From Candidatus Thorarchaeota archaeon (GTDB lineage Archaea > Asgardarchaeota > Heimdallarchaeia > Hodarchaeales > Hodarchaeaceae): a DNA stretch of 32,000 nucleotides. Below the pieces are notes generated by a model. It was not told where the DNA came from and searched no databases. It worked only from the letters and a program-made list of their open reading frames with translations. The stretch is from positions 87,486-119,485 of the forward strand of contig JBHLRO010000011.1 of the NCBI GenBank assembly GCA_048882505.1. The letters run 5' to 3'. This document shows, one piece after another, positions 27,862-32,000 of the stretch (position 1 is the stretch's first letter; every line of letters begins with the position of its first letter). Both the position numbers and the translations under genes were made by a program.

Positions 27862-28731
27862 ATGATGAATAAGCTTCGTTCCTATAACGCCGAAAATGTC
27901 GGACTTAAATATGCCCAAGATTCACATCACAAAGACACGGAGCTAGTTTTTGTTGGTCTTGGCTTAGTGGGCTTTAAGAGCTGCTCACTAGAGATTCTTC
28001 AGGTTCTGCAGGCCTCAGATGTTATTTTCCTTGAGGATTATACTAACTTCATTTTGAGGGAAATTCCTCCACCGTTCCAGGATATTACAAAGAAAATAGC
28101 CACCATCACAAGGAAAGAATTGGAAGAAGATGATGAGGAATTTTTTAAAAGAATAAGGGGTTTAAAGGTCGTCCTACTCATACCAGGAGATCCTTTCATC
28201 GCTACCACTCACATTTCTTTAAGAATTTCAGCTGAAGAAAAAGGAATAAATTATCGAATCATTCACAATACGTCAATACTTTCAGCCGCTATTTCCGCAT
28301 CTGGACTCTCACCGTATCGTTTTGGCAGGACAGTAACATGTCCGTTTCCACAGAACCCTAGTGAACATCCCTATAACATTATCAAAGGTAATCAACAGAT
28401 AAAGGCTCATACATTACTTTTGTTGGATATCAATCCGGTTTCAGGCGAATTTGTCTCCATAGATCAAGCATTATCCATGTTAATGGACATGGAACATAAA
28501 AATCAGGAAGGTTTGATAAAGGAAACGAGTTTAGCAATCGGAATAGCTCGTCTTGGTTATAAAGATGTAACCATCGCGGCGGGTACCATACAGCAGCTGA
28601 TTGATCGGGACTGGAACGCTATCGGTCCCCCTCAGTGCGTAATAATCATAGATTCCGAGCTTCATTTTGCTGAAAAACAAACCTTGAAAACCGTTTGGAA
28701 GATTCACGATGATTTAAAACGGGATAAATAA
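27862..28731 (+). CDS. dph5: Diphthine synthase
   Basis: FVGLGL, DVIFLEDYT, PGDPFIATTH..L, IHNTSI.SA, GL..YRFG.TVT, HTLLLLDI, ARLG and GPP...II. Confidence 0.9.
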   Translation: MMNKLRSYNAENVGLKYAQDSHHKDTELVFVGLGLVGFKSCSLEILQVLQASDVIFLEDYTNFILREIPPPFQDITKKIATITRKELEEDDEEFFKRIRGLKVVLLIPGDPFIATTHISLRISAEEKGINYRIIHNTSILSAAISASGLSPYRFGRTVTCPFPQNPSEHPYNIIKGNQQIKAHTLLLLDINPVSGEFVSIDQALSMLMDMEHKNQEGLIKETSLAIGIARLGYKDVTIAAGTIQQLIDRDWNAIGPPQCVIIIDSELHFAEKQTLKTVWKIHDDLKRDK

Positions 28732-29402
28732 TGACAAGCACCTCCAACACGACAGAGCACTTCCATTTACTATTAAAGGACTTTTTGAAAGTAGCGTTTC
28801 TACTTACCCAGTCTCAACAGAGTTTTAACATTGAAGATTTCGCAGGCAAGCTTAGCAGAACCATAGATGAAGCAAAAGCGCTGTTATCTATTCTAATTAG
28901 CCTCAATATGGTTAAACTTGTTGGTAAAGCTAGTGGCAATTATCAGATAACGATTGGAGGTCGAAATAACCTTAGAATAGTAATGACGGGGGGTGCTTTC
29001 GATATCTTGCATCTTGGGCATCTAAAAACATTGCAGGCTGCAAAAAACCATGGTGATCTCTTGTTTGCGGTAGTAGCATCGGATCAAACCGTTGAAAGGA
29101 ACAAGGGAAGACCACCAATGAATAGCCAGAATAACAGAATGGCTCTTCTTTCCCACATTGACATTATTGATAAAGTGGTGGCCGGTGCCTCCGATCCTGA
29201 AAAATTCATTGAAACTGTCCGGCTGATACAGCCCGACGTAATAGCACTTGGCTACGATCAATCACTCTCGGAAGAACGTCTTCTAGAAATGCTTCATGAG
29301 AAAGGGGAGACGAATATCGAAATTATTCGATTGGAGGCAAACGTTCCGGATGAGAAAACATCACTAAAAATGCAATCTATCGATGATCACTCATTTGATT
29401 AA
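28731..29402 (+). CDS. ribL: FAD synthase RibL with N-terminal winged-helix-like extension
   Basis: GGAFDILHLGH (HxGH nucleotidyltransferase), GDLL..VVA.D, KGRPP and PDVIALGYDQ. Shares a TAATG overlap with dph5 and is adjacent to ribK. Confidence 0.82.
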   Translation: MTSTSNTTEHFHLLLKDFLKVAFLLTQSQQSFNIEDFAGKLSRTIDEAKALLSILISLNMVKLVGKASGNYQITIGGRNNLRIVMTGGAFDILHLGHLKTLQAAKNHGDLLFAVVASDQTVERNKGRPPMNSQNNRMALLSHIDIIDKVVAGASDPEKFIETVRLIQPDVIALGYDQSLSEERLLEMLHEKGETNIEIIRLEANVPDEKTSLKMQSIDDHSFD

Positions 29403-29403
29403 T

Positions 29404-30144
29404 CTAAAGATCGAATCGAGGACGAACCGTAACTTCTAGCTCATCACCATCTTGTACTTCATATGTACTTTTAATATGCTCCTCACAGATTAATTCCAGC
29501 TGATCTATGTGATGGGTTCTATCAGGATAGACGATGGCAGCGGGAATTAATTTATCTTGATTTGGTACTATTAAGTAGGCAGGCCAAACAAATGCTTTTC
29601 CAAAAACCCGCCCATTTTCGCTGAATTCCGAGACCAGTTCAGATGGAGCATTTAACAATCGCTTGAAATTCTCTAAATGAGGGTCAGATAAAAGTTGAAG
29701 GTTTAAAGTTCCAGCGTAAGGACGAAAACCGAGTATAGCTTCAAATTGTCGTTGGTATCCCTTCCGGCTCATGTAGTAACTACCGTCACCCATGCCTGTT
29801 ATCACCTTACCCTTAATGCGGATTTCTTCTGGAACCTCACGCCCCTTGCTTGCCAAAACCATCCATAAATCAGAAAAAATCTGATCGAGAAAGGCAGCCC
29901 CTTCGGGAGTGACCCGAATTGAGTTTCCTTGCCGAGTATAGGTTCGAACAATCAGATGTTCATTTTCCATAGAGGTCAACCGTCGTGATGTACTCTGCTG
30001 GGATAGTCCGATCGCCTCTCCTAGTGTTTGTGTTGTGACAACTATAGATCTACGAAGGCCGCCCAATTTCCCCAAGTGGAGGAGGATTGGTAAATAATCG
30101 GAGATAATCTGACTGGTATTGTTTTTCTTCTTTTCCGAAGACAT
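29404..30144 (-). CDS. ribK: CTP-dependent riboflavin kinase with N-terminal wHTH (RibK/RbkR)
   Basis: wHTH (LGEAIGLSQQSTSRRL..ME...LIVR...G..IRVTPEG), then GKVITGMGDG.YY, F.PY.GTLN, P.RTHH, LELI and DGD. ATG 30144 is preferred over 30201. Confidence 0.92.
   Translation of the reverse strand: MSSEKKKNNTSQIISDYLPILLHLGKLGGLRRSIVVTTQTLGEAIGLSQQSTSRRLTSMENEHLIVRTYTRQGNSIRVTPEGAAFLDQIFSDLWMVLASKGREVPEEIRIKGKVITGMGDGSYYMSRKGYQRQFEAILGFRPYAGTLNLQLLSDPHLENFKRLLNAPSELVSEFSENGRVFGKAFVWPAYLIVPNQDKLIPAAIVYPDRTHHIDQLELICEEHIKSTYEVQDGDELEVTVRPRFDL
29789..29964 (-). repeat. Copy A of the ribK 5'-half direct repeat
   Basis: Ungapped hand alignment to 31825-32000 gives 146/176 nt identical. CCCATGCCTGTTAT (29789-29802) is identical at the end where homology stops. 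Confidence 0.95.
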
Positions 30145-30280
30145 TTTGGATGGTTCCAAGGAAGAATTAGCAACCAATATCGATGAGAAGGGCGCAGACA
30201 AACGATGGTACTAGTCCCGTTAACCCCTTTTTTAATTCGGTCGGAGCATCCACAATGTCACACATCGGTGGGGAATTTGG

Positions 30281-31123
30281 TCAATCGGCGTATGACAAAC
30301 GATAATGCCCAGGAGATTCGTCCATTGAGCCGATGAGGAATGTGAGCTCAATGTCCTCGGCATTGATGTGCTGCAAACGCAAGGGTGTGTTGTCCCCAAA
30401 CTCCAGGGTTATACGATCACCTAGCCTGGTATCCAAGATGAGGGTTTTCTTGATATACTCAATAGGGTAGAAATTCCGAGCATGCTGTACCACACCAGAT
30501 GATGCAATGGGGTGGCGGATCGAGATTCCCTCCTGGGTTTCATCCGAAAAGTGGAAGTGGATCTCCTGGGCCTGCCCCTCAAACGTAACAGGGTGAAGTG
30601 GGGCGTAGTAACCAGGGGGGAATATCTCGGTCGGATCCTCAGGAAAGACTTCAGCAAACATACTCATAGTCTGAGTAAAGTCCTTCCTTACGATTTCAGC
30701 AAGGTACGGCAGTTCAAGTTCAACAGGATCGAGCATAATCACGCCATCGGCAATGGTCACGGGGATGTCATGCGAGGCACCTACCCGCATCACCGCTTCT
30801 TTCTGGATTAGTTCAAACAACACGGTTTCTTTCTCTCCCGCCCAAAATCGCACCTCTCGATCTAGTTCCTCAAGTGAAAGTCGGATTTGAGGTATGTTCT
30901 TACCCGACCTGAATGAGTAAAAAAAGGAGGAAGGAAAACGGAGGATTATCAGCATATATCGCCTCTTATCCATCTTTGATACTTGTAAACCTTGGTCGGA
31001 AATGGAGAAGATCACGTCGTCGTCGGGGATGTTTTTCAGTATCTCAATGAGGGTACGGAAGCCCTCCAACTTGTGAGGGGCGATTTCAAAGAGTTTTTCA
31101 GAAGGAGTTGTGTCTCTCACCAT
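30281..31123 (-). CDS. Divergent PCNA-like DNA sliding clamp paralogue
   Basis: FRTLIEILKNIPDDDVIFSISDQGLQVSKMD...LIILRFPSSFF matches the PCNA N-terminal helix/strands. YPIEYIKK...DRITLEFGDNTPLRL...LTFLIG matches the C-terminal pattern. 280 aa; GGAG SD. Confidence 0.75.
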   Translation of the reverse strand: MVRDTTPSEKLFEIAPHKLEGFRTLIEILKNIPDDDVIFSISDQGLQVSKMDKRRYMLIILRFPSSFFYSFRSGKNIPQIRLSLEELDREVRFWAGEKETVLFELIQKEAVMRVGASHDIPVTIADGVIMLDPVELELPYLAEIVRKDFTQTMSMFAEVFPEDPTEIFPPGYYAPLHPVTFEGQAQEIHFHFSDETQEGISIRHPIASSGVVQHARNFYPIEYIKKTLILDTRLGDRITLEFGDNTPLRLQHINAEDIELTFLIGSMDESPGHYRLSYAD

Positions 31124-31355
31124 GAATTACTCCATTTGAGTATTAGTGAATCCTTCCCCCTTATATGACTTGTCGTAATAGAATCCATCCTTAGTACTGG
31201 GAAATCACACAATGGCCGTGTGTCATGCGGTGGTCGTTTAGTTGTTGATCTGTCCAGTGGCTATATTTGGTTTCGGCCTGCGTTAAGACCTGTTCGAGAG
31301 TGATCGCTTGGCCCTTGTATAATTTCGGCCACACGCCATAATTCTGTCTCCCTCT

Positions 31356-31784
31356 ATGCTGGAATTTGGCAATCTTAGCCGCTTCAATTTTCCCCCCGTC
31401 GTCATTCTCCTTGCCCCTCAAATCGGCGAAATTTATAGTACCAGTCCCATTCCCATTCAATGGCAAGCCTCTGATCCAGACCACGACTCCCTAAAATGTT
31501 CACTATTTTACTGGGATGGGGAGGATTGGATATCCATCGTTGCGAATCTTGGTGGCTCGAAATATTTGTGGGATATCCAGGGTGTTCCTAGTGGGCCGTA
31601 TTACCGTATTAGAGTTGTTGTCAGTGACGGGTTCCTCATAGCTATCGACGAATCAAGCAGTCCATTTACAATAGAAAGATCCCAAGGGACTGGCACAGCA
31701 ATCATCTGGGGTTTCCTCGGTATCTTCATAGCAACCCTCTCAAGGATGGTATATGGACTAAATAAACCGAAACTTAAAGGTTGA
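31356..31784 (+). pseudogene. Single Ig-like domain plus C-terminal TM anchor; probable 5'-truncated surface-protein fragment
   Basis: N.PP.V.L..P..GE, W.ASDPD.D.L, W..I...L, Y.WD...VP.G.YYRIRV.VSDG and FTI, then a hydrophobic helix. No signal peptide; in-frame TAA at 31320. Confidence 0.55.
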
Positions 31785-31811: not shown

Positions 31812-32000
31812 TTACCCTGGTGCGCCCATGCCTGTTATAACCTTGCCCTTAATGCGAATTTCTTCTGGTGCCTCACGGCCTTTGCTTGCTAAAACCACCC
31901 ATAAATCAGAAAAGATTTGATCCAGGAAGGCGGCCCCTTCAGGAGTAATTCGAATTGAATTCCCCTTCCTCGTATAAGTTCGGACAATTAGATTTCCGTT
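31812..32000 (-). pseudogene. ribK: Truncated second ribK copy (3' part of the wHTH domain to the first kinase motif); 5' end beyond the window
   Basis: Translates NGNLIVRTYTRKGNSIRITPEGAAFLDQIFSDLWVVLASKGREAPEEIRIKGKVITGMGAPG*, with 53/59 aa identical to the full RibK up to GMG. It is not in the ORF track because its start lies outside the window. Confidence 0.9.

Follow-up and report, generated by a model that had tools for sequence, protein, structure and literature searches.

A very divergent PCNA-family clamp gene in foreign DNA inserted into ribK of an Asgard archaeon

Introduction

Why would an archaeon of the Hodarchaeaceae carry a gene for a PCNA-like clamp beside ribK, ribL and dph5? 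The gene lies near one end of a stretch of 32,000 nucleotides (the window; contig C11:87486-119485, reaching the contig end) in a MAG of 4.3 Mb and 83 contigs that is 94.6% complete with 3.7% contamination. It had been picked out as a highly divergent, GC-richer clamp with an insertion and no replication genes around it, and the original prediction offered two origins, an element-borne clamp or a specialized paralogue with altered PIP-box binding. Asgard PCNA is reported to be mostly a single-copy, vertically inherited marker and is used in trees that place the eukaryotes (PMC12680538). Extra copies of PCNA, MCM and Cdc6 in integrated elements have been described as the 'shell' replication genes of archaea (Raymann et al. 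2014, PMC3914693). Here we report that the gene encodes a PCNA-fold clamp of foreign origin, and we argue that it is probably a horizontally acquired, very divergent accessory 'shell' copy of the PCNA superfamily, derived from a virus or other mobile element, and not the replicative clamp. All that goes past a PCNA-fold clamp of foreign origin we infer.

Results

The protein has the PCNA fold

The clamp gene (30281..31123, minus strand) has an ATG start and 280 codons, and encodes an acidic protein (pI 4.9). Overall, the clamp falls short of the thresholds of the curated PCNA families. The Pfam PCNA_N cut-off of 20.3 bits was passed by the window clamp (23.7 bits) but not by a second copy found on contig C2 (see below), and the window clamp had no Pfam match to PCNA_C. 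The NCBIfam archaeal sliding-clamp models (PRK01115) gave E 1e-12 with a best score of 47 bits, far under the cut-off of 293, and the TIGR00590 score was 23.7 against a cut-off of 99.1. Comparisons over the full length were clearer. By phmmer against PDB sequences, residues 12-266 aligned end to end with a Thermococcales PCNA (E 4e-8), and by hhalign a profile of the two paralogues matched nine ordinary PCNAs over 243 columns with a probability of 99.1% (E 5e-19).

Two AF2 monomer models (pLDDT 69 and 74; pTM 0.71 and 0.74) place the elements of each domain in the canonical order, with domain 1 at about residues 10-125, the interdomain loop at about 126-139 and domain 2 at about 140-264; these are the two similar beta-alpha-beta domains plus interdomain loop by which the PCNA superfamily is recognized. 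The best Foldseek matches in the PDB were all PCNA chains (probability 1.0, E 4e-17, TM 0.68-0.73, 14-21% identity), and the best structural matches in BFVD were viral PCNAs. As leads only, the ESM Atlas contains the clamp sequence, its nearest language-model clusters are divergent and mostly viral PCNA-like proteins, and its nearest structures there are archaeal PCNAs. The Pfam families of the 9-1-1 clamp fared poorly: Rad9 scored 12.7 bits against a cut-off of 25, Rad1 scored 12.6 bits (for the C2 copy) against 24, and neither clamp copy had a match to Hus1. Hence the profile searches and the monomer prediction did give a clamp fold, and the original view of a PCNA-like protein is borne out by the agreement of PCNA_N, phmmer, hhalign and AF2/Foldseek over both domains.

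The genome encodes a canonical PCNA elsewhere

Given that a sole clamp grouping with its lineage would have to be taken for the host PCNA, the genome was searched for a canonical gene. One was found on contig C67 (3736-4608) with an RFC small-subunit gene directly after it (PCNA_N 5e-12, PCNA_C 2e-5). Its product shares 96.9% identity with its counterpart in the sister species (G016) and 50-56% with those of the other congeners; the divergent clamp is only 21-24% identical to the canonical PCNAs of the genus. In an IQ-TREE phylogeny the canonical PCNA fell with that of G016 inside the genus clade (support 98/95). The two divergent copies formed a clade of their own with a stem length of 3 substitutions per site, a long-branch placement that is meaningful only as outside the genus PCNA clade; within it the C2 copy has a terminal branch of 0.46 and the window copy one of 0.06. 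The divergent clamp thus shows neither the orthology nor the conservation of a core replicative PCNA, and it is not the only PCNA of the genome, the copy on C67 being the one that groups with its lineage. The canonical PCNA has a tail of some 30 residues, nearly all of them acidic, and the contig that carries its gene is only 4.9 kb long.

An extra loop, an altered pocket and basic inner helices

A Pro/aromatic-rich insertion in domain 2 and a terminal IGS in place of the usual motif had been noted in the clamp, and both are confirmed. In an alignment with 16 PCNAs the segment that follows helix alphaA2 is about 11-13 residues longer in the clamp, and in the better AF2 model it forms a low-confidence Pro/aromatic loop of 19 residues (159-177) between alphaA2 (146-158) and betaB2 (178-183). 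The loop is specific to the lineage of the two divergent clamps, which are identical at 23 of 27 positions in the loop region as compared with 69% overall. In the structure of human PCNA the alphaA-to-betaB connections are on the front face, the site of partner and clamp-loader binding, as is the betaC1-betaD1 loop of the PIP pocket, and the Lys164 hairpin is on the back. By canonical PCNA topology the conserved alphaA2-betaB2 loop would be on the front face.

The last strand has I-G-S (residues 264-266) in the window copy and I-G-P in the C2 copy at the position of the L-A-P that is near-invariant in PCNAs. On the alignment, used here in place of coordinates, the window copy has P266S at an otherwise near-invariant column of the PIP pocket and the C2 copy has M51K and P247L at conserved columns, the remaining hydrophobic pocket columns being mostly kept in both. 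Counted in the same way, which gives residue numbers and not an electrostatic map, the four inner helices hold 10 Lys/Arg in the window copy and 8 in the C2 copy, the counts being 6-7 for host PCNAs and 7-12 for PCNAs of other archaea. Both copies have the basic DNA-facing inner helices of a sliding clamp. Thus the pocket, in which altered binding had been suspected, does carry substitutions and the inner ring has stayed basic. A loop on the presumed front face together with a changed L-A-P motif points to a set of partners unlike that of the host clamp.

A second copy and no other relatives

The second divergent clamp gene (275 aa, C2:100315-101142) has 69% amino-acid identity to the window copy, with a dS of 0.71. 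No close clamp homologue was found in 21 congeneric genomes, the sister species included. A word-indexed search of 5.8e9 clusters returned nothing besides the clamp itself and its C2 paralogue, and HMMER searches of 1.84e9 protein cluster representatives returned the paralogue and remote ordinary PCNAs only, at E values of at least 6e-7. Pattern scans of IMG/VR, of GTDB genome contigs and of JGI metagenome contigs gave no clamp relative, and the clamp had no match in PHROGs or PADLOC. The two clamps, the sole members recovered from the data searched, thus make up an orphan family; its extra loop is conserved and would lie on the face presumed to bind partners.

Composition and upstream region

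The higher GC content claimed for the gene from a few hand-counted lines holds when the whole gene is computed. Its GC content is 48.3% against 41.1% for the genome, placing it in the top 1.6% of 843-bp windows, and its GC3 of 55% is at the 99.5th percentile of 1,919 long ORFs, which average 38%. The C2 clamp is similarly atypical in composition. The spacer upstream of the clamp (31124..31190, minus strand) contains an SD-like GGAG 7-10 nt ahead of the ATG and a 26-nt block (31161-31186) with a TATA-like CATATAA; this block is 100% identical in the C2 copy, as compared with 78-84% for the module that the two copies share. Both elements that had been claimed, a ribosome-binding site and a TATA-like sequence, are therefore plausible, the promoter function itself being putative.

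The clamp shares a module with remnants of two other genes

A three-gene block is common to the two copies (window 30312-31744 versus C2:100325-101954) at 78-84% nucleotide identity. The neighbor of the clamp, co-oriented with it and 67 nt away in both copies, is a phage-type PAPS-reductase-like PP-loop gene, here called X. In the window X is a 3' remnant of about its last 69 codons (31191..31400, minus strand), and the nominal X ORF (31191-31484) runs antisense into the third gene of the block. This third gene (31356..31784, plus strand) encodes 142 aa with an Ig-like domain and a C-terminal TM segment, and is apparently the 5'-truncated end of a gene for a large CARDB/Ig surface protein. Contig C79 (1-2796) contains a single open frame for a CARDB-domain surface protein of 932 aa or more. 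The C-terminal end of this protein has 83% identity to the start of the Ig fragment, and the frame is likely the full-length form of the Ig-fragment gene.

The longest X copy in the genome matches phrog_424 (1e-22), SspD (1e-10) and BrxP (1e-4), and full-length relatives of about 300 aa are common in IMG/VR viral contigs. The PP-loop half of X is missing in both modules, and there is an additional 186-bp deletion in the window and a 1-nt frameshift in C2. Within the 22 genomes of the genus X was found as about six remnants in this genome and one in G016, and nowhere else; we located it at C56 281-1117, C2 101216-101600, C2 216387-216530, C64 303-416 and window 31191-31400, and on contig C135 of G016. 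The X remnants have a common 3' boundary of homology, which is the X stop codon, and differ in their 5' truncations. The clamp follows X only in the two module copies, the four other remnants ending at the stop codon with no clamp behind it. Such a boundary pattern suggests that X was captured from DNA or a transcript with a fixed end. When HMMs made from both clamp copies were run over 29 viral loci with X homologues, no PCNA-like ORF was found within 5 kb.

A foreign insert replaced the 5' half of ribK

Positions 27906 to 30150 of the window (dph5, ribL and ribK) align to G016 at 92%. The clamp lies in a 2,036-bp foreign insert in ribK at codon 138 that is absent from the sister species, and that carries the Ig fragment, the X remnant, the clamp, and a ribK promoter of its own with a diverged 5' half of the gene. 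The outcome is an intact chimeric ribK (29404-30201). Its foreign 5' half (codons 1 to about 133; 29803..30201, minus strand) is 76-88% identical to the sister gene and has the depth of the insert, and its native 3' half matches G016 at 97-99% identity. The displaced native 5' fragment (codons about 80-138; 31839..32000, minus strand), 98.3% identical to sister ribK, runs off the contig end, the window stopping inside it 176 bp past the insert. Three-way alignment gave a 14-nt junction core, ATAACAGGCATGGG, with a left copy at 29789..29802 and a right copy at 31825..31838, both on the minus strand.

Both junctions of the insert are spanned by Logan unitigs from the sediment run that best covers the locus; as this run is possibly the source of the MAG itself, the unitigs are not independent proof of the assembly. 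Unitig depth was 17x over the insert with its foreign ribK half, 33x over the native 3' half and 27-31x over the displaced fragment. Because the depth is 17x as compared with 27-33x on the native flanks, we read the insert as strain-variable, which suggests that about half of the sampled population is without it and that haplotypes with and without the insert coexist. The insertion is recent, later than the split from a sister species of about 92% nucleotide identity. We also considered the converse arrangement, in which the intact ribK would be wholly native and the contig-end fragment foreign. We rejected it on the depth (17x for the 5' half versus 27-33x for the 3' half and the fragment) and also on the drop in identity to the sister at the junction.

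Neither an integration target nor an RNA gene turned up in tRNA and Rfam searches over 27-32 kb. No gene for an integrase, a capsid, a terminase or a replication function was found in the insert, and two of its three genes are truncated. The clamp resembles a shell gene in being an extra copy, in inserted DNA, of atypical composition. The mobile-element hallmark genes that accompany shell genes were not seen, the only hint of mobility being the truncated PAPS-reductase-like X.

Two further inserts of the same kind

Eight congeners have Cdc6, GINS and MCM as consecutive genes with GINS abutting MCM. In this genome about 2.2 kb with the C2 clamp lies between GINS and MCM (C2 about 100286-102559). 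The original statement that the clamp has no replication neighbors is right for the window copy, which sits among ribK, ribL and dph5; the C2 copy does have them. On its left side the C2 insert has a 9-codon MCM stub, and on its right side a degraded remnant of the GINS N-terminus followed by the start of the intact MCM gene. The 15-mer TTTGACATCAAGGGA is present at both ends of the insert, and from this 15-mer onward MCM is 94% identical to that of G016. The G016 assembly is broken on either side of GINS.

The third insert (367 bp, C2 216153-216520) holds an X remnant behind a GTPase gene, and here the gene end was likewise replaced. Comparison with the sister species gave one signature for all three inserts, at ribK codon 138, at MCM codon 9 and at the last GTPase codons: foreign DNA inside the end of a host gene, a diverged replacement end supplied, and the native end displaced. 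The junction cores of the three inserts are unrelated to one another, and no integrase, tRNA or known RNA was found. Candidate mechanisms are break repair that captured foreign DNA, Campbell-type insertion of a circle bearing a host-gene fragment, and site-specific integration.

Discussion

Of the two origins proposed at the outset, it is the element-borne one that gained support: the clamp came in 2,036 bp of inserted DNA that the sister species lacks, together with a replacement for the ribK 5' half, its GC3 is atypical, and the unitig depth suggests that it varies among strains. If the clamp is still a working protein it would form a ring around DNA, the 8-10 Lys/Arg kept in its inner helices comparing well with the 6-7 of host PCNA, and host RFC would presumably load it. 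While still in the source element, it may have brought a polymerase or further partners to that element's DNA. The present host can probably do without it, and the clamp may work either by itself or as a subunit of mixed trimers with host PCNA. We considered dN/dS as a sign of present function. The value between the clamp copies is 0.28, and this line was rejected, as the truncated neighbors give the same value (0.23 for the X remnant and 0.32 for the Ig fragment). Because the remnants share them, the dN/dS values reflect selection in the source lineage and not at the present locus. Signs of retention are that both clamp ORFs are intact, the shorter X being disrupted in both modules, and that the loop and the 26-nt block are conserved. 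No RNA run containing the locus was found, and one raw-read run had no reads on the stretch.

Much of this evidence would also fit a clamp that was functional in its virus or plasmid and is now a non-functional, decaying passenger, its disabling mutation yet to come. The truncation of the X and Ig neighbors, the recent and apparently polymorphic insertion, the low dN/dS common to obvious remnants, the loss of near-invariant pocket residues in each copy, the longer C2 terminal branch (0.46 versus 0.06) and the failure to find RNA evidence all go in this direction. We nevertheless think decay unlikely, as full-length ORFs of 280 and 275 codons were kept when the shorter X was disrupted twice (by a crude equal-rate estimate, a chance of about 0.02), and as the promoter-like block and the lineage-specific loop are conserved above the rest. 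It is very unlikely that the clamp is a specialized paralogue evolved in the host, whether as a subunit of a heterotrimer with canonical PCNA or as a 9-1-1-like checkpoint clamp. The fold is common to Rad9, Hus1 and Rad1, sub-threshold Pfam scores were obtained for Rad9 (12.7 bits) and Rad1 (12.6 bits), RAD9B (TM 0.71) is in the ESM Atlas structure list, and one copy is in the Cdc6-GINS-MCM cluster. However, the gene was not found in 21 congeners, among them a sister with a 97%-identical PCNA, its composition is foreign, both copies are in inserts that break conserved gene arrays, the best profile matches are to archaeal PCNA and not to the 9-1-1 families, and Asgard PCNA is reported as mostly single-copy (PMC12680538).

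The constant neighbor raises another reading, in which the clamp is the DNA tether of a two-gene module for DNA modification, defense or counter-defense with the PP-loop enzyme X (SspD/BrxP-like). The X-clamp adjacency and co-orientation, 67 nt apart in both copies, and the likeness of X to SspD (1e-10) and BrxP (1e-4) are what such a module would have. It seems highly improbable, as X is truncated or frameshifted with its PP-loop missing in both modules, four other X remnants have no clamp behind the stop codon, 0 of 29 viral X loci have a PCNA-like ORF within 5 kb and the clamp has no PADLOC match. Finally, the clamp could be the selected payload of small cassettes that pass from strain to strain by break-repair capture, with a non-replicative role as a decoy or poison subunit that diverts host or viral PIP-box proteins, or as a DNA tether for a PP-loop enzyme. 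Such cassettes would be joined through homology at one flank and through end joining at the opposite flank, replacing a gene end each time. We regard this as quite improbable; if true, it would add a novel functional class to the PCNA-fold proteins, and would do so in the prokaryotes most closely related to eukaryotes.

An accessory clamp of viral or mobile-element origin, the reading that we prefer, has precedents. PCNA2 of Thermococcus kodakarensis (TK0582) lies in the integrated virus-like element TKV3 and is non-essential (PMC3914693). Like TK0582, the clamp is an extra PCNA besides the core clamp, in integrated foreign DNA, absent from relatives and presumably dispensable. Unlike the clamp, TK0582 is a recognizable PCNA with solved structures (e.g., 3lx2) in a large element with hallmark genes, whereas the clamp is about 21% identical to any PCNA, is under the PCNA_C and NCBIfam cut-offs, has an extra loop on the presumed front face and came in a 2-kb insert without hallmarks. 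PCNA-like genes are also known from the Asgard viruses Opia, Nidhogg and Skoll (PMC11529989). These share with the clamp an Asgard host and an element-associated PCNA fold, and are thought to aid element DNA synthesis or to manipulate the host; their proteins have detectable relatives in Asgard genomes, whereas the clamp has no sequence relative in IMG/VR or the protein collections searched. As compared with canonical archaeal PCNAs (P. furiosus 1ge8, T. gammatolerans 5a6d and the host protein of C67), the clamp has the two-domain acidic fold, the basic inner helices, the interdomain loop and most of the hydrophobic pocket columns, but it has about 20% identity, a 19-residue loop after alphaA2 and IGS/IGP for LAP, is not beside RFC and is not orthologous. 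It resembles the eukaryotic 9-1-1 proteins (Rad9/Hus1/Rad1) as a divergent PCNA-fold protein with a specialized role in a lineage close to eukaryotes, and differs from them in scores far under the cut-offs, in lacking three distinct subunits and lineage-wide conservation, and in its foreign context.

The clamp is hence one more replication gene brought by mobile DNA, unusually divergent, and not a new kind of system. It has a practical side, as genomes of the Heimdall group can acquire very divergent foreign clamp genes, which need to be recognized and excluded from trees that use PCNA to place eukaryotes. The clamp family could also give access to an Asgard virus or plasmid not sampled so far. 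The mode of entry, with its replaced gene ends and apparent strain variability, is more unusual than the clamp itself. The same GINS-MCM locus may be variable or repeated in the sister species too. The G016 assembly, in which we found no GINS gene, has breaks precisely at the 15-mer core of MCM and within Cdc6, at the ends of contigs C52 (29015) and C119 (6510). On C2 of the present genome, about 3.5 kb beyond MCM, there is a gene for an N6/N4 DNA methylase of 504 aa (about 106104-107618).
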